Source: Mytilus edulis (taxonomy: Eukaryota). Taken from it: a stretch of 64,000 bases of DNA. Made by a program: the position numbers and the translations under genes. Location: positions 20,150,001 through 20,214,000 of the forward strand of contig NC_092348.1 of NCBI RefSeq assembly GCF_963676685.1, read 5' to 3'. Shown here piece by piece: positions 21,978 to 63,670 of this stretch. Numbering within the stretch: the stretch's first letter is position 1; the number at the start of each line of letters is the position of its first letter. A model generated the notes under the pieces. That model saw nothing but the letters and a program-made list of their open reading frames with translations. It was not told where the DNA came from and made no database searches.

Positions 21978-23666
21978 AAACAAGAAGTACTTGTAACAGG
22001 ATGCTGTTACGAAGTCTCCCAAACAAAGCTCCCATAACTCGCCATTCATATGGTCCCATGTTCATTTGATTTGATTTTTTGTCCCATACAAGAATATATA
22101 TGGCTTACGAGTAGCAATCTCCACTATTTACAAGTATTCAAACAGGAGGGGGTGGTGGTGACCCCCAGGAAATTTACCTTCATTTCATTTGATTTGTTTT
22201 ATTGTCCCCTACAAGAATGTATATGGTTTAAGGGTGGGGATCTGGACCGTTTACAAGATAATAGCATATTCTCAAATTGAACGGGGTGGGGCTACCCCAG
22301 GAACTTCCCTTTAATTTTATTTGATTAGCTTTATTGTCCCATACAAGAATATATATGGTTTAGGGGTGGGGATGTTGACCGTTTACAAGTTTTCAAAGAA
22401 GAGGGGATGGGGTGACCCCCTTGGGACTTCCCTCTTATTTCATTTCATTTGTTTTATTGTCCCCTACAAGAATATATATGGTTTAGGGGTGGGGATGTTG
22501 ACCGTTTACAAGTTTTCAAACAAGAGGGGGTAGGGTAATCCCCTCCGGACTTCCCTTTTATTTCATTTCATTTGTTTTATTGTTCCCTACAAGAATATAT
22601 ATGGTTTAGGGGTGGGGATGTTGACCGTTTGCAAGTTTTCAAATAAGAGGGGGTGGGGTAACCCCCTCCGGACTTCCCTTTTATTTCATTTCATCTGTTT
22701 TATTGTTCCCTACAAGAATATATATGGTTTAGGGGTGGGGATGTTGACCGTTTACAAGTTTTCAAATAAGAGGGGGTGGGGTGACCCCCTCCGGACTTCC
22801 CTTTTATTTCATTTCATTTGTTTTATTGTTCCCTACAAGAATATATATGGTTTAGGGGTGGGGATGATGACCGTTTACAAGTTTTCAAATAAGAGGGGGT
22901 GGGGTGACCCCCTAGGGACTTCCCTTTAATTTCATTTCATTTGTTTTATTGTCCCCTACAAGAATATATATGGTTTAGGGGTGGGGATTTGGACCGTTTA
23001 CAAGATAATAGCACATTCTCAAATTGAACGGGGTGGGGATGACCCCCGGGGACCTCCCTTTAATTTCATTTGATTTGTTTTATCGTCCCAATTAAGAATA
23101 TATATGGTTTAGGGATGGGGATCTGGACCATTTAAAAGATATAAGCATATTCTCAAATTGAAGGGGGTGGGGATGAACTCCCAGGGACTCCCCCTATATT
23201 TCATGTGATTTGTTTAATTGTCCTATAATCAATTCTGAAGACTGCATGTATCTATCACTTACAGTTTTCAAGTTATATTCATTTGAAAATTTTAGAAAAT
23301 AAAATCCCATAGGGTTCTATAGTAAACCCATTCCTCCTTTCTACCCCCCAAAATACCCCTTAATAGACTCCAATGCACAAACGAAAGTTTGATGGCTCAC
23401 CTAGACATATTAGTCTACCATTTTCTGAAATTCTAGGTCAATCTGACAAGCGGTTTTGGAGAAACGCTGCGGACAAGTTCNNNNNNNNNNNNNNNNNNNN
23501 NNNNNNNNNNNNNNNNNNNNNNNNNNNNNNNNNNNNNNNNNNNNNNNNNNNNNNNNNNNNNNNNNNNNNNNNNNNNNNNNNNNNNNNNNNNNNNNNNNNN
23601 NNNNNNNNNNNNNNNNNNNNNNNNNNAAACAATAAGTCTCCAAACTTTGTTTGGGAGACTTAATAA
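21978..23666 (-). mobile_element. HINE-like (Helentron-associated) element containing a 123-bp tandem array
   Basis: Perfect 17-bp inverted repeat AAGTCTCCCAAACAAAG (22012-22028 / 23645-23661). Terminal stem-loop GTAACAG-GATG-CTGTTAC (21993-22010). About 9 internal units of ~123-131 bp at 22060-23220. The N gap sits where a microsatellite is expected. Confidence 0.8.
23481..23626. other. Assembly gap (146 N)
   Basis: Run of N. Confidence 1.
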
Positions 23667-24569
23667 GTTGCTTCACTTCTTGTGAGTTAATTATAAAGTC
23701 AGCAATATTTACCAGGCAAGTATTTATCAAAATATTTATTAATCGATTACAAAATGAGACATTAAAAACTGTCACCTAAGTAATCGCTAGGAACATGTAA
23801 GACTGAATTGATACGCATATCTGAATTAAGTTTCATAATAAAACATAAGCACCAAACTTTGCAACAGGATTATACTAGAAACAATAATAACCAAAAGGGG
23901 ACTAAAAGAATAGCAAAAACCATCTGATCTTTTAGTCAATTATTTTTGGGGGATGCTCTGAACGTCTTAAAAAACATTCAAGCTTTTTAAAAGATATTGA
24001 GGAAAAATAAAAATAGGAAATCACAACCATTGCCAAAACCGAGCGGATGCCCTCATAAGAATAACTGCTGCTTTTGTAACTGTCAAACAGTAATTTTTGT
24101 ATCAATCCAATTGTATGAAATCAAAGAAGAATGCATTTGTATACTTACTACACAGGTGTTTTGTGTAAGAGTCAGAATTGGTTAAAGTTACTAGTAAGAT
24201 GAAGTAAGGTGAAAGATTAAGCTAACTATAAAACTATGTATAATCCACCATTTTTTACATATAGAGATGTTTGTACCAAGTCAAATAATATGGCGGTTGT
24301 TTTCCAATCGTTTGATTTGTTTGGGCTTTTGAATTTGCCATTTAACATTTCGATTTGAATTATTCGGTATTTTTGTTATTTTACTTTTTATGACTACGTT
24401 ATAACCGAAATGGCAATTCAAGACTAAACTCAATTATAAGTGAAGGTCACTTAGAACCTAAAACTGAGTAATTGTAATATGTATGTATACTCGGATAGCA
24501 AGCCCACAAAAAGGTGCTAGAAAAGCAGAACTGTTGCGGGTACAATTTAATGTGATTGTAACTTTAAAA

Positions 24570-25040
24570 ACTCTTCAAAGTTTTTTCATGTTTGGCTTTA
24601 TAACTTTTTTGATCTGAGCGTCACTGATGAGTCTTATGTAGACGAAACACGCGTCTGGCGTATTAAATTATAATCCTGGTACCTTTGAAAACTATTTACA
24701 CCATTGGGTCGATTCCACTGCTGGTGGACGTTTCGTCCTCGAGGGTATCACCAGCCTAGTAGCCGTCAGCACTTCGGTTTTGACATGAATATCAATTATA
24801 TGGTCAATTTTATAAATTTCCTGTTACAAAACTTTGAGTTTTTCGGAAAAATAAGGATTTTCTTATTCCAGGAATAGATTACCTTAGTCGTCTTTGGCAC
24901 AACTTTTTGGAATTTGGGTCTTCAATGCTCTTCAACTTTGTACTTGTTTGGCTTTATAACTTTTTTGATCTGAGGGTCACTGATGAGTCTTATGTAGACC
25001 AAACGCGCGTCTGGCGTATTAAATTATAATTCTGGTACCG
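24570..25040 (+). mobile_element. Non-LTR retrozyme-like repeat: one full 356-bp unit bounded by two type I hammerhead ribozyme motifs
   Basis: Direct repeat with CTGATGA cores at 24624 and 24980 (spacing 356). The first HHR core is intact; the second has GAAA->CAAA. Confidence 0.85.
24618..24661 (+). ncRNA. Minimal type I hammerhead ribozyme
   Basis: GCGTCA-CTGATGA-GTCT(tatgt)AGAC-GAAA-C(acgc)G-TC|TGGCGT: stem I GCGUCA/UGGCGU, stem II GUCU/AGAC, minimal stem III, GUC cleavage triplet. Confidence 0.8.
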
Positions 25041-26380: not shown

Positions 26381-29300
26381 CTATACATAATCTAAGTTAC
26401 TGACTACACGTTCGTCGGGATCAACCGATCTGACATAGCTACGACCATGTGAACTGTTACGTGTAATAATGTCATCTCTTCCTAAGTCCTCAGGAACCAC
26501 AGATATCCTACTCTTGATAAACAAACCTCTGTTATCATTCGATATCCTCGGTTGTTCATTATTTGATACTGAAGGCATTATGTGTGAAGACACCCGAGAT
26601 TCATTGTTTACAGAATTCCTTGTTTCGGATTTGATTGAATTTCTGGAATTCTTATTTGTCACATTTCTTGTATCACTTATAGTTGGACTTTCCTTGTTCA
26701 TTTTAGTGCTTGTCCTTGAGTTTCGCATCGAAGGACTTTTTTCCTCAGGATGCATTGATAGTCTACTTACATTGTTTTGGTAAAATGAAAATTTGGTTGA
26801 CATTCTAGATTCAGGTTTTGATATTTCTCCTAAAGCATCTTCTTTGTCGTCTGATTCAAGGTCCTGAATCGTAAGAACACGCTGTTCATTGTGAATACGA
26901 CTATTATTTCTATTGTTAGAATTGTTAATTGCAACTAATCCTAATGGAATATCTGTATTTATTCTTGAGACAGAATTACTATTTCTGGAATTAGATTGCT
27001 GTATAGTTGGTGCCGTTGCGGGAGGTTGAATAGAAGTTGAAGGACTTTCAACGATTGTCACTTCTGGTTGTATTTCGTCTGTTTGAAAAGAACTGCGACT
27101 TTCCATTGTAGAATTTCGTGTCCTACTTGTATGTCTGTTCTCATGACGTGTACCTATTCTTGAGTAATATGCTGGTGGTGGAGAATTTGGATATGGGGGT
27201 GGAACATATCTGTTTTGTTGTGTAGGTGCCTGTCTTGGAGCGTGGGTTGGTGCCTGTGTAGATGGCGGTGGCTGCTGTGGTATATTTGTATCTGTTTCCT
27301 GACCATGGTAGTGTGGAGGCTGTGATGTACCTTCAACTTAAAATAATTAAAACAAGTCATTATCAACTTAAATGTTGTCCAAATTTATTCAATACCATCC
27401 GTTGTCGAAACTCTGCATTAATAACGTTTTCATGTTTTGTATAACATTTAGTTCTATGGATATCGTATATAAGAAAATGTCGATTGTCGACCATTGTCCA
27501 CGAGATCATTTGCTATAATCAACTTCATGTTTTACCTCGGCTGTATTTGACAAAACCTTTCAAAATCTCATCAATGCTCTTCAACTTCGTACTTATCTTG
27601 ACCTTTTAACTTTTTATTCGAGCGTATCTGATGAGTCATTAGTAGACGAAACGCATGTCTGGTGTACATAATTATGTGCCTGGTATATTTGATGACATTC
27701 TACATCATCATTCAATGTGTTTAAATAAACGTTAACCATACACTCCGATAGTTTACTTGCCTTGTTTTTTCCTCAAATGTGGTTTAGTGTGACACTGATT
27801 TTGGTGCTTGTTACTCATCATTCTTGAATGAGCATTGTCAGGTATATCGAGATCAATATTTTTGGAAACTAAACACTAGTACAATAAACATTCAAGATCA
27901 TCCTAACAAAAACTTACACTTTAACCAAAGAGAGATTTAAGATACAAAACCTATAAGTCGTAAACGAACTGATAATGGCATGGTAAAACACTTAAACGAT
28001 CAAAAGACAAACAATATACAAAACACGAACGACTGAGCAACACGAACCCCACCAAAAACTGAGGGCGATCCCACGTTTTAAATGGTAGGCAGACACTTTT
28101 ATATCAGAAAATAAATGAGTTTCTTTTAAAACGGAACATTCATATTTTGGTCTTACAATTCTGTTTAAAGTGATGTTGTCTTTCAATGTGTACATTTCGT
28201 TTTTTATTGTTTTTATATCAAATTTGTTTCTCTTTAATTGTTTTATTTCAAACCCATAATCATTATTTGGTTTGTGTTGTTTTCTCATTGCTGGTTATGT
28301 CACATCTTCGTATTTTGGCAAATGCTAATATGATTAACAAATTAAAGCTACCCTCTTGTCCTGTGGCTAGAAAAGGATCCCCATTTACAAAAGGATCCAT
28401 CATAAGTCTCCTCTGTCTTTCCTGATCTCTCTCCCTCTGTCGCCGACGCCTTTCGTCTAGTCTCTGTCGAAGTTTCCTTTTCTTTCGGTATCGACATATT
28501 ACACAACACAGAATTACCACAATGATAGTAACGATAGTACCTCCAATAAAGACAGATACCAATATAAGTGTCAATGTTGGTATACAACACCGTGTGTCAC
28601 CTGTACCGTCACTTGGTATGCAGCAGCCCCCGACAGCACATGATTCTGTATCATAGTGTCCATTTAATGCACCACTACATTCTTTACTAAAGCAAAAACC
28701 TACAAATTTTATTTGGAAATGAAATTAAAAAAAAGTAGCAAAGTAGTATAATAATATTGAAAATCAGCCTTCTCGGAAATTGTATCAATTTATTTTCATG
28801 ATTTACTGCTGAGGTCATAATCTAGACTTTTTTCTATTTTTTGTTTGTTTTTTGTGTTTTAAATAGATTGCAGGGAGTTGTTGTGGCCTGCTTCGGATTA
28901 TCAATTTTGATTTCCATATAAGTATTGATACTGTTTTTGTACTTTTTAAATGTTTACCAGGTTCCAACGTTTGCTTTATACTTGTTCATACCATATATTT
29001 TATTTTCACCTTCTCTCTTGTCCTGTAACTTAAAAGAGGGATACGACTATAGCCATTTTTTGTTTGTTTTACATATATTGAGCCTTGATTTTTATAATTA
29101 CATTCTTTGTTATGACATCAGAAAAGTATATATAATTCTGATATCATGAAATGAACAAATCGAATCCAAAGTCACTTTAAAAATGTGAAGCATTGTGGCT
29201 CGCATTTCATATTTGACGATATCAGTGGGAAGAAAACCAAACATTCTATATTTATCCTCACTGGATTTACAATTTTTTGGTTTGAGCATTCGTTATGATG

Positions 29301-34948: not shown

Positions 34949-37900
34949 CTATTCCGTTACTCCAGGGAGCGATATATGTGTTTCGTAGGCTGGTGGCGGA
35001 TGAGATGGATAATTATAGTTTCGAGGTGAATACGCTGGTGGAGCAGGAAGTCGATAGGGTCTTCTAGTGTCTTCATCTGTTATATAAAAATATAGAAATA
35101 AAATTTACATTACATTTCAAACGGAAAAGTACCACAATTTTTAAACCGTGCTTTACTTCTTTTTGTCTTCACTTTTGTTTTAATTTTGCAGTAGGGTTGA
35201 TTGCCGTATCATTTACGTTTACTCTTGCCTCTGCCTTTCATATGATTTTACTCCATAAAGTGTTTGTAAAACCACTAAAAACAACACAAATTGTGCAAGA
35301 CAAAAGACATGAAACAAAAAGCAAAAAATATCATTTCATGTTATACTGAGAATTTAACATGAATGAATAAGAAACGATTGCAGTAATCTGCTATATACAT
35401 ATTTGGTAATATAAATAGCGTTACTTGTAGTGTGAGTTTCCTAACTAAAATGTATGGATTCGGTTTGTTCTATGTGTAGACATGTTATTTATAGCTAGTG
35501 CTGTCTACTTGAAATTTATTTGCGTTTTTCCTTTTTTTTGTGTGAGACGTTGTTAAAGTAACTTTTTTTGTCGAAGCGATCATATTTGATATCAGAATGC
35601 TCGGCGTGGAAATAGACTTAAATTAACACAGATATTGAATGTGTAAAGTAAATTCTGTAAACATTGCATAAAGTGTATTTTAGAGAACAGATCAACAGAC
35701 ACGGCTTACTTTAAATAAAGCTAATACTAACAATGACCACTGCCCTTTCCTCGATCTTGATATCTATATCACTAACGGAAAGCTTAATACTAAAATTTAT
35801 GATAAAAGAGATGATTTTTCATTTCCTATCGTTAATTATCCATTTTTAGATGGTGACGTTCCATTGTCACCATCTTACGGTGTTTATATATCTCAACTTG
35901 TACGATTCGCTCGTGTATGTAACAATGTTTTAGATTTTAACGAGAGAAATTAATGTATTACTGAAAAATTATTACACCAGGGTTTTCGATATCACAAACT
36001 AGTCAAAACATTTACTAAATTTTATCATCGGTATAAGGACATCATTCGTAAATATAGCTGAACATGCAGACTTCTTATACGTTCAGGTATTTCACATCCA
36101 ATTTTTTATGGAAATATTCTTTATAAAGCACAAAAATGTCAGTATTCACCTCAGAAACTGACAAAACCTTTAAATAGACTTATCAAGAAGGGATATAGTT
36201 ACGATACTGTTGTCAGGTCACTAAAGATTGCTTATTTTGGCGTTAATATTGATTCACTTATAGGGTCTTTGCATCGGAACTAAACACATTTATTAAAAAA
36301 CCAGTTGTTGGCATGACACGGGTTATGTTCTTCTCATATATGTTATGATGGTATGATACTAAACCCCTAACGGGAAGGATTGTGCCTGATATTCATATGA
36401 TGAAATCATAATCTTTCAATCAGTTTAATTGAAGTCTGGAGCTGGCATGTCAGTTAACTGCTAGTAGTCTGTTGTTATTTATGTATTATTGTCATTTTGT
36501 TTATTTTCTTTGGTTACATCTTCTGACATCAGACTCGGACTTTTCTTGAATTGAATTTTAAATGTGCGTATTGTAATGCATTTACTTTTCTACATTGGCT
36601 AGATGTATAGGGGGAGGGTTGAGATCTCATAAACATGTTTAACCCCGCCGCATTTTTGCGCCTGTCCCAAGTCAGGAGCCTCTGGCCTTTGTTAGTCTTG
36701 TATTTTTTTAATTTTAGTTTCTTGTGTACAATTCGGAAATTAGTATGGCGTTCATTATCACTAAAGTAGTATATATTTGTTTAGGGGCCAGCTGAAGGAC
36801 GCCTCCGGGTGCGGGAATGTATCGCTACATTGAAGACCTGTTAGTGACCTTCTGCTGTTGTTTTTTCTATGGTCGGGTTGTTGTCTCTTTGACACATTCC
36901 CCATTTCCATTCTCAATTTCATTCCTCAGCCTCATTTCGAAACTTATTCCTCGAATTTGACATACGCGGTAACCTAATTATCAGAATGTATGTCAAACGA
37001 GACGAATTTAATTTTAAAATTATCAATCTCCCCACCTACGAATCAGTATACCAATGTCATCTGCATATGAGCTATACATTTCCCAACTCATTCAGTATGC
37101 ACGATCTTGCAACTGCTACTCAGACTTGTAAATCGTGAATCAGTGTTTTAGCAGAAAGTTGATGAACCAGGTAAATGTTAAAGTTAGTCGTATCCTATTC
37201 TAAAAATATTCATCGGAAATTACCAATTCCTTGTTGATAAATATGACGTGTCGGCTTCACAAATAATACACGATGATTATATAGATTCTCAGTACAGACG
37301 TTGTGTAACATGGTGTTCTTTTATTTGTCCTCGTAAATTATTACTTTTACTGGTTAGTCTATTTATTGTAATAGATTCATTTGACGTTGCTCTGTACTTA
37401 TACATGCCGTCATTGTGTTATTGTGCTATTGTAAATTTTTGTATTCTTTCTTTCATTTTCACTAATGGTTTTTTTTCTATATTTCCCTTTTTTGTCCTAC
37501 ATTTTTGTTTGTTTATATAGTGATTAAGATTATAACACAATGTTGAATGCTGTATTCCTTTTTTTTACATGTTTACCTATTATGTCTATTTTGTTATTGT
37601 TCACATATTCTTGTCAAGATAACAGAGTTTTAAACGACTGTCATACAAGTGAGAGGTTTGATTAGATATAAAATCAGGCTTTTGATTTTGCCATTTGAAT
37701 AGGGCCTTTCCGTTTTGAATTAACTCGGAAGTTCAGTATTTTTGTTAGTTCACTGGATACATAAATTACAAATGAGTCCTGACAAACAACGTTAACGTTA
37801 TATCGCTAGGTCTTGTAAGTGGACGAAACTTCTTTCTTATGTTTTACGTCAATTTTTTTCAGCAATCAAAACCAGGTTTCATAGTTATTGTGAAACCACG

Positions 37901-46194: not shown

Positions 46195-47930
46195 ATAAAC
46201 TCATCATAGATACATGTACCAGGATTGAAATTTTGTATTTAATGCACCCGATGCGCGTTTTGTCTTCAAAAGACTTATCAGTGACCCTCGAATAAAAAAA
46301 GGCCAAATAATATACGAAGTTGAAGATCAGTTGGGAGCGAAAATTCCTTGAAGTTTTCTAAAATACAGCTTAGATAATCTATTCCTGGGGTAGAAAAAGT
46401 ATTTCAAAAATTCAAAGTTTAGTAAACAGTTAATTTAAACTTATGACCATATCAATGAAACATGAAACATGAAAACTTAATTAAACGCCTATTTCTACAT
46501 ATACAATATGTATTCAATGGCGTTGTACATAAATGACATATAAAATACAAAAATACTAAACAAAAATACAATATGTATGTACAATACCAAAAATTGAAAA
46601 TTTATACTGTGATACACAAGAAAAAAGTCAGAAAAGTTCAAAATAATTTTGGAAGTACAATGTTTTCAACCGACATTTAAAAATATCCAAAGATTCAGAG
46701 TTTCTTACATTTGTACCTAGTTCATTCCACCATTTTGGCCCAATAGTACTAAAGCTTCTATCTGAAAAAGTTTTCTTTTTGTTATATGGGACTGCATAAC
46801 AACCAATAGATGACTCTGACGACCTTAATGAACGTTTCGACACTTGAGGATTTAACAAATTGATCAAATATGACGGTGCATTACCTACATGACAGTTGTA
46901 CATATATGTTAAGATTTTAAATGTAATTCTGGCTTTGATCGGAAGCCAGTGTAAGTCAAACAATGCCTGCTTGGCACTGTCATACTTAGAACGGTTTAAC
47001 ACAAGTTTGGCACACATATTCTGTATACGTTGCAATTTATATAAATCAGTTTGTGAAACTCCAAAAAGTATAACATTGCAATAATCTAAATGTGAAATAA
47101 CCAAAGATAAGACCAAAGTTTCAGTTGCTTCTTTCGATAGATAGGATCTTATGCACTTTATTTTGTAGTAGTTCATCATTGCTGTCTTACATTTTTTAGT
47201 AATATGGTCTTTGAAGTTTAGAGTCTCATCCAGAAAAGCTCCTAAGTACCGTATACATGTTTTTGATTTTATAACATCTCCACAAATGATTTTTTCTTTT
47301 GTCTGACATTTAGAGAGTTGTTGTCAGCTGCCAAAGAGAATAAACTCTGTTTTCGCATTGTTCATTTTTAGTTTGTTACTGTTCATCCAGTTGTTTATAA
47401 GAACAGCGCAGTCCTGTAAGTCACGAATTGCATCCATCTCATTCGTTAATGTTGGCACGAAACGTTTATTAGCAGTATGGTCGTCGGCAAATCCGTACAC
47501 AGTAATAGATGGTGGAATAATGTCGAATAGGGTTCCGGCGTAGACTAAATAAAGCCAGGGACCTAAGCAACGATATCAATGATAGTTCGTGTCAGCACAG
47601 AAGTGTTGACTACATAGCTGGTGATACCCTCGAGGAAAAAAACCCACCAGCAGTGGCATCGACCCAGTGGTAGTAAATAAACTCATCAGTCAGATACCAG
47701 GGTTGACATTTTCTATTTTCACCAGACGCGCGTTTTGTCTTCAAAAGGCTAATCAGTGACGCTCACAAACGCTTAACAAAAGTTAAAAAAAAGCCACTTA
47801 AAGTAAAATGTCGAAGAGCATTGAGGACAAACTATTCCAAATACTAGTATTTTTGTCAAATACAGCTAAGGTAATCTATTCCTGAAGTAGAAGGCCTAAT
47901 ATTTCCAAAATCTAAAGTTTTGTAAACAGA
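46195..47930 (-). repeat. Retrozyme-like tandem array (~350-bp period) interrupted by an L2 LINE
   Basis: Degenerate HHRs at ~46250 and ~47725. Their spacing is ~351 bp once the LINE and one TSD copy are removed. Confidence 0.75.
46459..47572 (-). mobile_element. 5'-truncated L2-clade LINE (RT and C-terminus)
   Basis: LGPWLYLVY...YGFADDH...WMNSNKLKMNNAKTEFILFGS*...YLGAFLD...LDYCN...LQRIQN...LHWLPI...RSFS..GPKWWN. One TGA at 47324-47326, stop at 46628, 3' tail (TTTCATG)n, 10-bp TSD ATATCAATGA (46449-46458, 47573-47582). Confidence 0.9.
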
Positions 47931-48537
47931 AACACCCTCGATAATCTATAACAGTTCTATGAAATGCAAAGGATTTCATGCCTTAATCCAAATATCTCAC
48001 ACACAAAATATAACTTTAAAACATCAGAAGGATATTAATTCATAAATTTATAATAATTTCGATTTCAACTTTAATTGGCTTCATTAGATATTTTTAAATA
48101 TTATGCAACAATAAAAATCATTAGATACAATGGCGGCTATATTTCACACGCAAAATATGAAATCCATATAAAAGTTATGGAAAAATTTCCTGAATTTTCC
48201 TGAAAACGTGTTGCTTTTAAAATATGGAAGATATATCGATATGAGTGTGCACTATATTTTAAAAAAATACACTTAAGCTGGTACGATTTTTAAAAACAAA
48301 CTAAATTCTGCTTTAACATGAAGATACATAATGTTTGAAATTCATATTTTCTTGTTGTACGTGTCAAATTGTGTATGAACGGTGATAATTTTGCAAAACA
48401 TCCAACCTGATCATTTTTCATATAAGTGAATTAATATGTGTATACTGACAATTAACGAATTAAAGTGTCGTGCTAATACACTGGCTATGATGTAGTTAGA
48501 TGTGTCACTCTTTGCACAATTTTTAGGGGAAATTCCA

Positions 48538-49484: not shown

Positions 49485-49960
49485 ACAAACTTCATCCCGG
49501 ATGCTTTGTTCTTGCTGTTTCAAATAAGTTTTGGATGTGTTTTCTCCCTGCTCCTGGTATTTAGCGAAGTTTTGACTCGTGCTTCGAATTTCGGTTTCAA
49601 GATCTGCTAGTGCAGTAGAAGTTTTAGATCCTTTTGCAACTTCGGACAGCTTAGATATTGTGCACTTACTGTGATGCTCTTGTAAACATTTAAGGCAAAG
49701 GATTCCGTCATGTTGTGAACAGAAAAAAAATCATATGGTTCTTTGTGATGCTCACACTTTTCATCAATGAACAGTTCTGTACTTTTCAAGTAGTCAGTTA
49801 TTGATATCAAGCGGTGGGATCGTAGTATTTTTGTCCTTTTACGATCGTTGATACATTCGTGACAGAAGCCCTCGCCACAACCATTGCACCAAACCTGAGC
49901 GGACCTTGAAAAACCATTATATCCACAAGGTTCACAACTAACTAGAGTACCCTCTGCCAT
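49485..49960 (-). pseudogene. Truncated, frameshifted paralogue of the B-box/coiled-coil/propeller gene
   Basis: High similarity to 56205-56673. +2 insertion in an A-run at ~49723. B-box His->Arg (CINDRKR vs CVKDHKR). Homology stops within the coiled coil and jumps to sequence matching the 3' flank at ~53620-53780. Confidence 0.9.
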
Positions 49961-50499
49961 ACTATACCTGTCGAACAACAAAATTGATTATGATCATGCT
50001 ATTTCAATGTATGAGTTCTATTGCAAAGAAGTCATTTCTTCCTATTGGCTTTTACCTAGAAAAGACATGAGAAATCCCAATAGCGTGGAGGTTTATTTCA
50101 TAGTTGCTTTTAATTGAGCAGTAAATACAGATTAAATGATACGCGCTATGCTATATTTATTTGTAACGGACATATTAGAACTGTGTATTTGTATGTACTA
50201 TATGCCAAATTTTAATTAATTCGAACGGACATTTCAATATGATACACAACAAAACAAAAAATCAGGTGTTTCAAACTTCAATGTAACCAGGAAGTAAGTG
50301 TAAAAGCTGACACAGAAAAGCGCCTCAAACGCACTGAATTTATAAGGTGGAAATTTCATTTCCACTATCATTAAATTATTCTGTAAATATTTTAAACATT
50401 GTATTTGCTATAGCTCTATTAAACAGTTTATCTTTCAAATCGAGAATCTTTCCACAATCAATCACTCGTTACCTGATAAAATTTGTGTATACTGGTACA

Positions 50500-52159: not shown

Positions 52160-52197
52160 TTAATTAGTTATCATAAGTACCAGGATTATAATTTTAT

Positions 52198-52241
52198 ACG
52201 CCAGACGCGCGTTTCGTCTACATAAGACTCATCAGTGACGT
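52198..52241 (-). ncRNA. Minimal type I hammerhead ribozyme (best-preserved copy) within a retrozyme-like fragment 52165-52357
   Basis: Reverse complement ACGTCA-CTGATGA-GTCT(tatgt)AGAC-GAAA-C(gcgc)G-TC|TGGCGT. All core nucleotides are intact, stem I is 6/6 paired, and stem III is the palindrome ACGCGCGT. Confidence 0.85.
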
Positions 52242-54978
52242 TCAGATCAAAATAGTTAAAAAAGCCAAATAAATACAAAGTTGAAGAGAGCATTGAGGAC
52301 CCAAAATTCCAAAAAGTTGTGCCAAATACGGCTAAGGTAATCTACTCCTGGGGTAAAACATTCTTGACTAGTAACTTATTTTTATACGTTTAAAATTCAA
52401 TGATTTTAATATACCGGTATAATTTACCTAAGAGCTTTTTCTATCTATTTGATCAAGATTAAAGAGTTACCTTGTTCAACGTCGTTTAAGATGTGCGATA
52501 TAACTTGTTATGGATGGATTATAATGTTTTGTAGATATAGGAAGATGTGGTATGAGTGCCAATGAGACAACTCTCCATTCAAGTAACAATTCATAAAAGT
52601 AAACTATTATAGGTTAATGTACAGCCTTCAACACGGAGCCTTGGCTCACACCGAACAGCAAGCTATAAAGGGCCCCAACATTTAATAGTTTAAAACCATT
52701 CAAACGGGAAAACCAACGGTCTAATCTATATACAAACGAGAGATGAGAAACACGTATGAACTACATAGACAGACCACAACCACTGTACATCAGATTCCTG
52801 TTGATGAAAAATTAGTTATAGGCTCTGTTTGGTTTATTTGCAACTTTTTAGTTTGACAATTTGTATCAAGAATCATGTGATCTAGAGTACAAGTTTATCT
52901 GGACTTTTTGAAAGATCCAAATATCTTATTTTGTATAGTCATTCAGTTGTAGCCCGTTGATACAAAGGTTACATTTCCCTTCATTGATATAAAAATAAGA
53001 AAATTTTGTATGATTACCAAAGGGAAAACTTTCTACAATCGACCAAATGACAATGAAATTAACAAATACAGTTCACCGTATGGTTTGGAAGAACCAATAC
53101 CACATAGTCAGTTGTAAAAGATCCCGAAATGGCTGTTGAAAAAAAAACGTCCTCTATACGTAACAAATATGTTGTTAATCAAGAAATCAAGCTTCTTTAT
53201 AGTGTCAGTTTCAAAGAATTTTTGTGATTCTTTACAAAGTAGGATTTATTCCTTCCTAAGACAAGTACTTGTATCTGCGCTAACATGTTTAACTCAGCCA
53301 TATTCTATATATATATGTGCATGTGCCAAGTCAGGAGCCTGTAATTCATTGATTGTCGTTTGTTGCTGTGTTACATATTTGGTTTTTGTTCATTTTTTTG
53401 GGTACATTAATAAGACTGATAGTTTTTCCGTTTGCTTTGTTTTACATTTGTAATTGTGGAGCCTTTTATATGTGAAAATGTGGTATAAGCTTTTCTCATT
53501 GTTGAAGGCCATATGTTGACCTAAAATTGTTGATTTCTGTGCCAATTTTTTTCTCTTCGGAAGAGTTATCTCATTGGCAATCAAACCACATCTTCTTTTA
53601 TATATTATAACTATATGTTTTGTTGAATTCATCATACTTTCAAAAGCCGTGGTCAACATTGCACAAAAAACTAAAATTTTTCCTTTTTGACAAATATGTC
53701 TGTAACAGCGTCTTCTCATTACAGTCACACTTGTTTACTAGTGAAAAAAACGGGTTACCTAAAATAAGTATGATAGTGTTGGTATCTTCCTCACGTAGCA
53801 ACCATATCTCTTTTGGTAAAATTTAGCTAGTCCGTTCGTGAATTTAAAAAAAAAATTGTGTCACCATTTGGAACCACTTTAAACTTTTAACTTTCCTTAC
53901 CATCTTCTGTCGCCACAACCTCAAACGGATAATCGGTTTATTCACACAAATTTCTATAAGGACATGATTTAGCCATTCTTCTCGTGTTTATTATCAAAAT
54001 GCTATGTGTGATTTCCATTATTCAATTATCCGTCGTCAGTTTTGTTAATTTAATTAAAAACTGATAATAGACGACATAAGATGTATTGGCCGATTATTAA
54101 AAATGTTGCGTTTTTGTTTATTCTCTTGAAAACTATAATGTATATAGATTCTATGGACACGTATTTTTGTTGTAAGATGTTTTGCAAAACTAAGTTCAAT
54201 TTTGTATATAAGTAAATTCAATCAATAAAATGTTGCACATTAAAAGAAGAAATGTAATTTGAGATATCTGGTTTCAAGTTGCATTCCCAACCAGCTTTGA
54301 ACTTAACTAAACGATACCAACATAATTCTTGTCTCATACAGAAAACTCTTCTGTGGAAAGCGAGGGTTCGAAACAGCTTAGTTGCTTAAAAATAAAAGAA
54401 AGAGAAATTTATAGTCAAAGTCAATAAAAAAAATTCCTTTAACTATATAATGCTAAAAGACTGCTAGAGGTCAACATTAAGTTGTTTTCCACGCCAAATG
54501 TATTTGATGAACCTTGTCAAAAGTTTTCTTGTGTATTATATACATTTTTTCATTATTTGGCGAATTACTGTTTGTTCCTATTGTCTTTAATGAATTTATT
54601 CAGTCTTGTGTTGGAGGCAATGTTGCCTTTAAACATCTTTTGTTGTTTATGGGTTACTGTCTCATTTACTCGAAACGTCAAAATCAAAATCTTAAACACA
54701 CCAGACGAATGGACAACAACTGTCATATAACTAACTTGGTACATGTATTTTCTTATATAGAAAATTGTGGATTATAAACTGGTTTTATAGGTAGCTAAAC
54801 CTCTCACTTGTATGACAGTCGCGTAAAATTGCATTATAATGACAACGATGTGTGAACAATACAAACAGACATAATAGGTAAAAATGTCAAAAATAGGGAG
54901 ACAGCAGTCACTAAATGTTTTTTAATATTATTTAAAAGGCATGACAACAATGTGAACTATAATGACCTGAAATGAATT

Positions 54979-56673
54979 TCAAACTTTGATGTCGTAAATT
55001 GTCGCCCTTTCGTCGCTAACGTTACAAACTAACAGTTGATCGGTTTCTCGACAAAAAGAGATACCGCTTGGACCTTTAAGACTATTTGATTTGTCCAGAA
55101 TAACACGATGTTGTTGTCCGTCACTAGAAACTACTATAACCTTATCATAATCTGGTAGTACAATAAAAACGTTACCATGGTTATCTACATCTAATGAGGA
55201 AGAATAATTGTGCAGAAAAACTGTTGAGCAATGTAACCGATTGTCATCAAATGTCCATAACTGTTTACCAGAATGGTCAATAGCATAGACAGTTTGTGTC
55301 GTTAAGCTAATAAAATAAATATGATCTTTGAGTACTGCCAGGTTATAAACATTACTATATTCAACAGGAATATATTTCGGATCAGTTCCATCTAAATCAA
55401 AGATACTGATATTTCTGTCATGCATGCAGTATAGTTTTTCGTTTTCATAGCATATTCCCCATACACTCGAACCGGAATCAATAATAGTCTTAACTATAAC
55501 CTTTGTAGTGATATCCACTATTTTAACCTTGCCATCCGTAACAACTGCTATCTTACTACTACCAATAGGCGTAATATCAAATATATCATTTAGTCTCATG
55601 TCCCCGATAAATTTCCCGTCTTCATCATGAATTACAAGTTCGCCATTTTGATTGTCAACAAACACACTGTGCATTGTAGGAAGAATAGCACAAGAAGTCA
55701 ATGACATTTTCGGGCCTCGTGAATTTACGATCTGGATTGCATTGTGAAGCTTTAGTTTGATTTCATCGATCGTGTAATGTTTCTGAATGTTGAGTTGTGC
55801 TTGTTTTTTGAAACGGTCTATGAACTTAACAGTTTCTGAACTTTCCCGAACGACAACATCGCCGAAAGATTTGAGGTCTAGAAGTAAAGACAATAAATTA
55901 TCATTCACCTTTAGTTCTAGGCTATACCTTTTTTGTTTCGACAAGTTTTTCCGAACTTCTTGTTTTTGTTTAAAAAATATACTTCCTATTTGTCGGATTC
56001 CAATGAAGGCTTGTTTCTCAGAGGCATACTTCTTCATGTTAGAAATACGGTTGTGTAACGCGATTGCTGTATTACAGTGACTCTTAAAAGCAGACTTATT
56101 CTCGTTAACTTTTTTGGTGCAATTGTTGTATTTCATCTCAAGGTCCTTTAAGGCTTTTTGCTGTAATCGATCTAAGTGTTTGTTGAATTGAGAACGAATA
56201 TTGTAAACTTCATCCCGGATATTTTTTTCTTGTTGTTTCAAATCAGTAATATAATTGTCTTCCTCCTTGTGATATTCAGCGAAGTTTTGACTTGTGCTTT
56301 CAATCTCGGTTTCAAGATCTGCTAGTGCAGTAGATGTTTTAGATCCTTTTGCAACTTCGGACAGCTTAGATATTTTGCACTTACTGTGATGCTCTTGTAA
56401 ACATTTAAGGCAAAGGATTCCGTCATGTTGTGAACAGAAAAATTCATATGGCTCCTTGTGATGCACACAGTTTTCATCAATGAACAGTTCTGTACTTTTT
56501 AAGTAGTCAGTTATTGATATCAAGTGGTGAGATCGTAGTAGTTTTGTCCTTTTGTGATCTTTGACACATTCGTCACAGAAACCCTCTCCACAGTCATTAC
56601 ACCATGAATTGGCGGACTTTGATAAACCATCATATCCACAAGGTTCACAGCTAACTGTAGGACCCTCAGCCAT
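54979..56673 (-). CDS. RING-less TRIM-like protein: two B-boxes, coiled coil, C-terminal NHL/beta-propeller, 564 aa, single coding exon
   Basis: CEPC..WCNDC..FCDECVKDH..H (B-box 1), CVHH..FFCSQHDGILCLKCLQEHH (B-box 2), heptad-rich middle, propeller-type repeats (LDVDNHGNVFI, LKGPSGISFC). ATG at 56673 follows the acceptor TTTTACAG (56681/2), so a 5'UTR intron is present. Confidence 0.92.
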   Translation of the reverse strand: MAEGPTVSCEPCGYDGLSKSANSWCNDCGEGFCDECVKDHKRTKLLRSHHLISITDYLKSTELFIDENCVHHKEPYEFFCSQHDGILCLKCLQEHHSKCKISKLSEVAKGSKTSTALADLETEIESTSQNFAEYHKEEDNYITDLKQQEKNIRDEVYNIRSQFNKHLDRLQQKALKDLEMKYNNCTKKVNENKSAFKSHCNTAIALHNRISNMKKYASEKQAFIGIRQIGSIFFKQKQEVRKNLSKQKRYSLELKVNDNLLSLLLDLKSFGDVVVRESSETVKFIDRFKKQAQLNIQKHYTIDEIKLKLHNAIQIVNSRGPKMSLTSCAILPTMHSVFVDNQNGELVIHDEDGKFIGDMRLNDIFDITPIGSSKIAVVTDGKVKIVDITTKVIVKTIIDSGSSVWGICYENEKLYCMHDRNISIFDLDGTDPKYIPVEYSNVYNLAVLKDHIYFISLTTQTVYAIDHSGKQLWTFDDNRLHCSTVFLHNYSSSLDVDNHGNVFIVLPDYDKVIVVSSDGQQHRVILDKSNSLKGPSGISFCRETDQLLVCNVSDERATIYDIKV

Positions 56674-56772
56674 GCTATTCCTGTAAAACAACATAATAGA
56701 TAATGATCATGGTATTTAAATGTATGAGTTCTATTTTAGTGGTGTCAATTGTAATCCCTAACTTATACTTAA

Positions 56773-57489
56773 AGTAGCACAATACAAAGGTTTTTTCACA
56801 TCCAATCGGACAACTTTAATCTGATATAATAATTCAATCATCCTTCTTTGAATTTTATAAATGAGGTACTAAAAGAATGTGGAAAGATTAATCTTTCAAA
56901 TTGTGATAATTTCATTATGACATAATTATTACATAATTAATTGTTATGTAATCAGTTGATATATTGTGATGTCCACACTTGCATGAATTTAGCTTTTTTG
57001 TTATTCATAGCAGCCCAAAATATTTTATAGATTCTTGTACAACACAGCTTGACCTCCAAAACCGTGTCTCAGATTTCCAAAAAACATCAATAAAACAATT
57101 TTTATACCCAATTAAGTTTAGTGATCTCTTGTGAATTGATGTTGCAAACTTCATTTGAGGTTTATGAGAGAATGAAATACAATAGGAAAAATCGGAGACA
57201 CGGTTGTGGAGGTCAAACTGTGTTGTACAAGAATTTATAAAATATTTTGAAATGCTATGAATAACAACGAAGCTAAATTCATTCAAGTGTGGACAACACA
57301 ATATATCCACTAATTACGTAACAATTACTTATGTAATAATTAGGTCATAATGAAATTATCACAATTTGAAAGATTAATCTTTCCTCTTTCTTTTGGTACC
57401 TCATTTATAAAATTCAAAGAAGGATGAAATGAATAAATCAGTTGAAAGTTGTCTGATTGGAAGTGAAAAATTCTTTGTATTGTGCTACC
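56773..57489. mobile_element. Foldback MITE with ~310-bp imperfect TIRs and TTAA TSD (Kolobok-like)
   Basis: TTAA|AGTAGCACAATACAAAG ... CTTTGTATTGTGCTACC|TTAA. The arms are complementary over ~310 bp. Absent from the paralogous region near 50020. Confidence 0.9.
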
Positions 57490-63370: not shown

Positions 63371-63469
63371 TTTAATTCCCCGAATGCATACCCAGCCCAG
63401 TAGTCAGTACTTCTGTGTTGACTTACGTTATCATTCATATGTTCATATATAATTGTTAATTAACTGTTA

Positions 63470-63670
63470 ACAAAACTTAAATTTTTTGAAATACTAAGGG
63501 TTTTCTACCTCAGTTAAATTACCTTAGCTGTATTTATCAAAACTTTTAGAAATTTTTGGTCCTCAATGTATGTTTTTATTCGAGCGTACCTGATGAGTCT
63601 TTTGTAGACGAAACGCGCGTCTGGCGTAAATATAAAATTTTAATCCTGATATCTATGATGAGTTTATTTG
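63470..63670 (+). repeat. Retrozyme-like fragment with hammerhead core at 63583-63627
   Basis: GCGTAC-CTGATGA-GTCT(tttgt)AGAC-GAAACGCGCGTC-TGGCGT; core intact, two stem I mismatches. Confidence 0.75.

Follow-up and report, generated by a model that had tools for sequence, protein, structure and literature searches.

A decayed hammerhead retrozyme insertion in a mussel genome, likely copied by a Naiad reverse transcriptase

Comparing a pair of hammerhead motifs with the rest of a Mytilus edulis genome, we found that positions 24571 to 25039 of the window, the whole 64-kb stretch of DNA analyzed here, most likely hold a decayed member of the mussel non-LTR retrozyme family, a class match that draws on size, hammerhead type, copy number and genus. 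We read the element as an insertion of about 1.3 units whose RNA, as a circle or a multimer, was likely copied by a Naiad reverse transcriptase starting just before a motif common to retrozymes and Naiads, and give this reading a probability of roughly 0.7. The kind of element is already known, and this copy is a decaying member among thousands. What we did not find in print are the register of insertion ends across the family and the link to the Naiad motif. The features of the copy are the following.

24571-25039, + strand: whole insertion, about 1.3 units of a ~355-bp family, delimited by its match to the family; 5' edge degraded (24571-24590)
24571-24697, + strand: 5'-truncated partial unit, putative equivalent of a Penelope-like pseudo-LTR
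24618-24661, + strand: upstream hammerhead (type I) with undamaged core residues, 6 bp in helix I and 4 bp in helix II, cut predicted after 24655
24656-25011, + strand: cut-to-cut monomer, 356 nt, 38% GC
24703-24760, + strand: Naiad-type motif, with outer helix 24703-24709/24754-24760, inner helix 24711-24716/24744-24749 and a conserved core between
24974-25017, + strand: downstream hammerhead (type I), damaged by G12C (25000) and by a G-G mismatch in helix I (24975), its predicted cut site (after 25011) preserved
About 28 nt past the second cut site (+28), + strand: insertion 3' end, some 12-15 nt before the point where family copies usually stop

The original prediction had called two type I hammerheads in direct orientation 356 bp apart, and this holds: the motif boxes were located, with CUGAUGA at 24624 and 24980 at a spacing of exactly 356, and Rfam Hammerhead_1 matches both motifs. 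The search with type I models that it had proposed thus returns the pair, with both scores under the gathering score of 34 (29.3 bits, E 0.004 upstream; 26.0 bits, E 0.048 downstream), while an undamaged family copy at 52198-52241 (-) exceeds it at 36.1 bits. Both cut triplets are GUC, and the predicted cuts fall 3' of 24655, as had been proposed, and 3' of 25011. The upstream motif has every type I feature (core CUGANGA, GAAA, NUH; helices I to III; helix I open), and the downstream one departs from them at G12 and at one helix I pair. Of the damage, the change of GAAA to CAAA at 25000 (G12C) had been correctly seen; overlooked were, in the upstream motif, an A at 24649 that disrupts the palindrome of helix III and, in the downstream motif, the G-G mismatch at 24975 that costs helix I one pair. 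The label "minimal" did not survive. Minimal hammerheads of Penelope-like elements have a helix II of 7-8 bp, a helix I of 4-5 bp, an unpaired base before stem II and an absent or vestigial helix III (PMC4209133), whereas the motifs here have 6 bp in helix I, 4 bp in helix II, 1-2 bp in helix III with a palindromic loop and no extra base, the canonical type of that paper.

A repeat is present, as claimed, but it is one unit plus a repeat of its end (106-113 nt) rather than a full tandem, and a 106-nt stretch recurs at 92% identity. Tandem Repeats Finder made no call on the repeat in 24571-25039. The longest open reading frame in the insertion has 34 codons and its GC content is 38%, in keeping with the low GC (< 50%) and lack of coding capacity of non-LTR retrozymes, and the monomer of the window copy folds no better than its shuffles (z 0.95). 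Over the cut-to-cut unit the copy is 91.9% identical to the family majority, three of its substitutions (~8%) lying in the hammerheads; bases private to this copy stand at 24714, 24779, 24975 and 25000.

The family is large. In the genome searched, which has 1.37 Gb and 14 large contigs, a 32-nt family core has 8118 exact copies and its reversed control 0, which argues that the hammerhead family is not due to chance. A 462-bp query gave 7966 candidate matches, and many of the 40 that were scored lie in arrays; arrays with 352-356-bp steps occur on many contigs. Among 56 distinct cut-to-cut units, taken from 60 loci selected because they resemble the window copy or contain an exact core, 34 are 355 bp long (range 318-367), within the 150-450-bp head-to-tail units, in dimers to multimers, that define retrozymes. 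The median identity of units to the column majority is 96.6%, compared with 91.9% for the window unit, and only 6 of 55 units are as far from the majority or farther. The exact G12C core occurs at 19 places versus 8118 for the normal core, so we rejected G12C as a subfamily trait; G12 is kept in 48 of 48 hammerheads of the motif-selected loci, 41 of which keep all core residues. G12C is decay. Fifteen further pieces of the same family, at 67-95% identity, lie within the window, among them 52161-52365 (-), 63377-63659 (+), 47570-47932 (-) and 27532-27707 (+), and the first of these, whose 3' end is at +43, keeps its hammerhead undamaged.

Elsewhere in the window, a long inverted repeat at 57002-57263 with weak matches to plant microRNA models is probably a miniature inverted-repeat element, 22061-23223 is a 123-134-bp tandem repeat with G-rich/C-rich hairpin arms, and open frames at 54979-56706 (-) and 49607-49987 (-) give weak matches to B-box zinc fingers, the longer frame having a beta-propeller-like end.

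The insertions of the family have a common 3' end. From 60 loci, the first 30 matches on contig 1 to each of two exact patterns, we delimited 46 insertions, 45 of them uncut by the locus edge. Their 3' ends fall at +36 to +46 past a cut site in 37 of these 45, or in 36 of 44 when one pair with common flanks is counted once, and their 5' ends are scattered over the whole unit, from phase 8 to phase 354. In the window copy the start is at phase 272, and the end, near +28, falls outside the family peak. An end some 40 nt past the ribozyme junction suggests that the template was continuous across that junction, as a ligated circle or an uncut multimer would be. No target-site duplication was accepted in the 46 insertions; AT-rich matches of 6-8 nt, counted without a control, occur at 10 of them, the best at the window copy being 7 nt. 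Reads on its right flank in four contig runs, examined for an empty-site allele, contain no loose ends or joints, with two of the four runs covering the flank only from 25055 and two giving no coverage.

Just past this common end point in the unit lies the motif that links the family to Naiad elements. It is the best local match between the unit and a 4.3-kb Naiad insertion, a score reached by 1 of 200 shuffles of the window unit and 0 of 200 of an array unit. The 26-nt Naiad version of the motif occurs 23 times in the genome, and in the supplement of PMC8557442 its 10-nt core word stands at the start of Naiad consensus sequences in 11 of 12 occurrences, two of them Mytilus. The passages of that paper on stem-loops, hairpins, UTRs and secondary structure do not mention the motif. 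Among thirty loci collected by a looser pattern, a Naiad frame follows the motif in 14, a family hammerhead is nearby in 14, and none has both. Of the two with neither, one is a family copy that has diverged and the other belongs to a second family with hammerhead-like motifs. This second family, at one locus (L130, - strand; contig C6, ~3718900-3719500), has cores 351 bp apart and a different palindrome; only the Naiad-type motif is common to it and the retrozyme family, at +47 from its predicted cut versus +48.

A second, decayed Naiad family, whose start lies at locus L125, 1483-1545 (+), is 56% identical in protein to the first. Over 63 nt its motif is 86% identical to that of the retrozyme (E 1.7e-16), a closer likeness than the motif of the first Naiad family has. 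This copy is interrupted by a young ~325-bp repeat, and a search with the start of the family returned only that unrelated repeat and no intact family copy. In a comparison of one retrozyme family with one Naiad family (32 and 15 copies), three of the seven outer-helix pairs change on both sides, and 391 of 416 and 181 of 195 cells are paired. Pairs were counted by fixed offsets; the first Naiad family has a 24-nt hairpin inside the motif, which automatic alignment misplaced. In the second Naiad family, represented by a single copy, two outer-helix pairs are mismatched. In the window motif, 24703-24760, 12 of 13 pairs are kept, with one of four substitutions relative to the family majority breaking a pair.

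Full Naiad insertions have the same register. They end 2-6 nt before the outer helix of the motif in four of four cases, and retrozymes mostly stop 2-8 nt ahead of this helix, with ends from +39 to +45. All four whole Naiad insertions also have a truncated copy of their own 3' end upstream. Three of the four fetched insertions have an open frame of 1053 codons, so a helper that may be active is present in this genome. By eye, the first 40 residues of the frame agree with the published Naiad_Mgal, and Pfam finds an N-terminal GIY-YIG domain and, at E 0.01, no reverse-transcriptase family. The motif and the insertion register in common are what is expected of a non-autonomous partner of Naiad elements, from which we infer the action of the protein itself; they do not prove which protein acts.

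The window also contains remnants of Naiads. An old, 5'-truncated Naiad 3' end lies 180 bp upstream of the insertion at 24226-24390 (+), 70% identical over 182 nt, and seven more such ends are found in the window. At 35600-36400 (+) there is the end of a decayed Naiad-like frame, 40% identical to the protein of an open-frame Naiad locus (L103), with a SECIS-like element at 36335-36399, about 50 nt past the stop, that scores 31.7 bits, under the gathering score of 35. Selenoprotein Naiads have reportedly been described for clams and spiders, and a mussel family of this kind may exist.

Taken together, the motif and the end register suggest how retrozymes could be moved. Intact arrays would be transcribed, neighbouring hammerheads would pair via an 8-nt palindrome, and monomers of ~355 nt would be cut out and then ligated to circles. 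A Naiad protein would bind the motif on a circle or multimer and nick AT-rich DNA, and copying would start internally, ~40 nt past the ribozyme junction and a few bases before the motif. The enzyme would run back through one full unit and drop off at a random point, leaving a partial unit followed by a unit, the same layout as the pseudo-LTR and body of Naiads. Two hammerheads 356 bp apart would then simply be what copying through more than one turn normally yields, and the window copy would since have collected its ~8% substitutions. A precedent for such a start is Poseidon_Ac, in which reverse transcription begins internally and needs the RNA 3' of the start, and hammerhead cleavage is dispensable (PMC11167929). 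A more general model, which we hold with less assurance and still rate above an even bet, is that the Naiad enzyme, itself without a hammerhead, inserts mussel ribozyme circles starting 2-8 nt before the base-paired motif, and that at least two unrelated hammerhead families captured the motif at the same distance from the cut site. The motif would then serve as a transferable tag by which any small circle could be inserted, and as an element like a template boundary for a telomerase-related enzyme.

Alternatively, as has been put forward for frogs, the mover of the retrozyme could be a Penelope-like element that bears hammerheads (Penelope/Poseidon, Neptune or Nematis type); the Naiad motif would then be a relic of origin or serve in transcription or RNA stability. 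Retrozymes have been tied to Penelope-like elements through their hammerheads and through pseudo-LTR homology (PMC7229834; 10.64898/2026.07.22.740005), Naiads have no canonical hammerheads (PMC8557442), and the motif directly precedes the Naiad start codon, where a promoter or a translation signal could sit. Against it, among the Naiad and retrozyme families compared here, the distance from insertion end to motif is the same in retrozymes and full Naiads, and the second hammerhead-like family keeps only the motif, one nucleotide from the position it has in the first; we consider this alternative unlikely. Copying by a Naiad enzyme would have consequences beyond this locus. So far the mover of animal retrozymes has been guessed from co-occurrence only. 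Once a helper is named whose frames are open in this genome, together with a candidate signal of 58 nt and the base at which copying should begin, the guess can be tested in vitro, as was done for Poseidon_Ac. If true, it suggests why Naiads need no hammerhead and supports the view of hammerhead RNAs as parasites of Naiads.

RNA of the family is abundant. Three RNA runs, matched to the stretch at 88% likeness, placed 5329 of 8,710,588, 6104 of 8,252,136 and 2803 of 12,728,340 records on it, so that all three runs show at family level the abundant RNA typical of retrozymes. In two runs the depth in the middle of the unit (24742-24775) differs by mate direction, 825 versus 127 and 1013 versus 126, and the third is unbiased; under the usual library convention, the favored strand is that of the hammerheads. 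Reads at least 99% alike to the window copy number only 8, 14 and 1 in the three runs, and at the private site 24714 the family base is found in 895 of 912 reads of one run, which may come from another species than the window. These two observations indicate that the RNA stems from other copies. No pile-up of read ends at the cut sites was seen in any of the three runs. Joints stepping back 355-357 nt are present in RNA runs and also in a contig run of unrecorded kind, and since tandem DNA gives the same joints equally well, the reads do not separate circles from tandem transcripts. RNA depth is 0 on both flanks, which is uninformative, the organism label of these runs differing from that of the runs with the flank and both contig runs of the same label missing it; none of the matching runs that the run search listed is recorded as RNA. 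Mussel repeats are known to self-cleave, to accumulate as circles and to be ligated by RtcB in vitro (PMC7229834).

Whether the window copy itself still acts as a ribozyme is a separate matter. By nearest-neighbour energies, which leave aside tertiary contacts and proteins, an intact natural pair has -98.9 kcal/mol in the double-hammerhead fold, -101.5 unconstrained and -88.0 as two single motifs, compared with -82.5, -97.0 and -80.4 for the window copy, so the predicted cost of the active fold is ~14.5 kcal/mol in the window copy versus 2.6 in the intact pair. The family's 8-nt palindrome favors a double hammerhead in these calculations. By the pairing, each core in a double hammerhead would act on the site of its partner. 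The hybrid of upstream core and downstream site is intact save for one A-C mismatch in helix III, and G12C alone would thus not block monomer release, since cleavage at the downstream site would be the work of the upstream core. The original prediction doubted that this copy could release a monomer; that is likely correct, but the explanation offered, the downstream G12C, is incomplete on the same grounds. Given the energy cost and the age of the copy, its activity is unlikely; it is probably inactive and no longer a source of circles. In the terms of one preprint (10.64898/2026.07.22.740005), in which an active copy has two consecutive complete hammerheads, the downstream motif is incomplete through G12C and the helix I mismatch.

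The opposite case would be that the upstream core still cuts the downstream site and then its own, releasing a 356-nt monomer whose circle would carry a dead G12C ribozyme. In the double fold the upstream core and helices I and II are undamaged, both triplets are GUC, dimeric folds of such motifs have been described (PMC4209133), and a cloned single mussel repeat self-cleaved at ~0.1 per min (PMC7229834). With the monomer-releasing fold so far above the minimum, the copy among the most diverged of its family and the family base prevailing at 24714 in a run that is perhaps from another species, we give this case little credence. Less probable still is that duplication of DNA at the locus, or expansion in the manner of a satellite, produced the two hammerheads and that the window insertion did not pass through RNA: long head-to-tail arrays of the family exist, no target-site duplication was accepted and array growth by unequal crossover has been invoked (10.64898/2026.07.22.740005), but the copies are dispersed over large contigs on both strands with one fixed 3' end and random 5' ends, and the two 106-nt parts differ by 8%, about as much as the copy differs from the family majority. 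A decayed insertion copied from RNA, likely by a Naiad enzyme, remains our reading of the element.

Among known systems, the family is closest to the non-LTR retrozymes of Mytilus galloprovincialis (Cervera and de la Pena 2020, PMC7229834), with which it has in common a type I hammerhead, ~350-390-bp repeats, GC < 50%, thousands of copies, no protein and abundant RNA; that mussel family comprises ~5000 hammerheads in repeats of this size, and a 353-nt construct and circles were reported for it. The original prediction, which had named a circle-forming non-LTR retrozyme of a class reported in mussels and thought to be mobilized by Penelope-like elements, is supported at this class level. The likeness is one of class features and not of sequence to the published clones, and the window copy differs in having 1.3 units and three hammerhead lesions. 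A link between retrozymes and Penelope-like elements is a hypothesis in PMC7229834, and the main text of that paper, as far as covered here, does not describe a fixed insertion end or a motif common with Naiads for mussel retrozymes. Our literature search found no paper that names Naiads or the motif for retrozymes; Repbase, subscription journals and supplements, outside its range, may bear on this point.

For vertebrates, too, non-LTR retrozymes have been described as hammerhead repeats that are non-autonomous and have a link to Penelope-like elements (Li, Clavereau, Pollet 2026, 10.64898/2026.07.22.740005). There, in frogs, the homology is to pseudo-LTRs, and here it is to the start of the Naiad main unit; a term search of the whole text for Mytilus, mussel and mollus- gave 0 matches, and no mollusc is included. 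Poseidon_Ac (Frangieh et al. 2024, PMC11167929) resembles the window family in its internal initiation, with a start inside the RNA downstream of the hammerhead, a requirement for RNA 3' of the start and genomic ends that match the starts. Poseidon_Ac belongs to a different clade, its signal lies inside the ORF and its initiation was demonstrated in vitro, whereas for the mussel family such a start is deduced from insertion ends, and the two are likened by process and not by sequence. In layout, there is a parallel with the Naiad elements themselves (Craig et al. 2021, PMC8557442), which have a partial-tandem insertion, a 5'-truncated upstream copy, the motif at the start of the main unit and the same distance from end to motif. 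Unlike the retrozyme, Naiads encode an N-terminal GIY-YIG domain and a reverse transcriptase, and they do so without canonical hammerheads.
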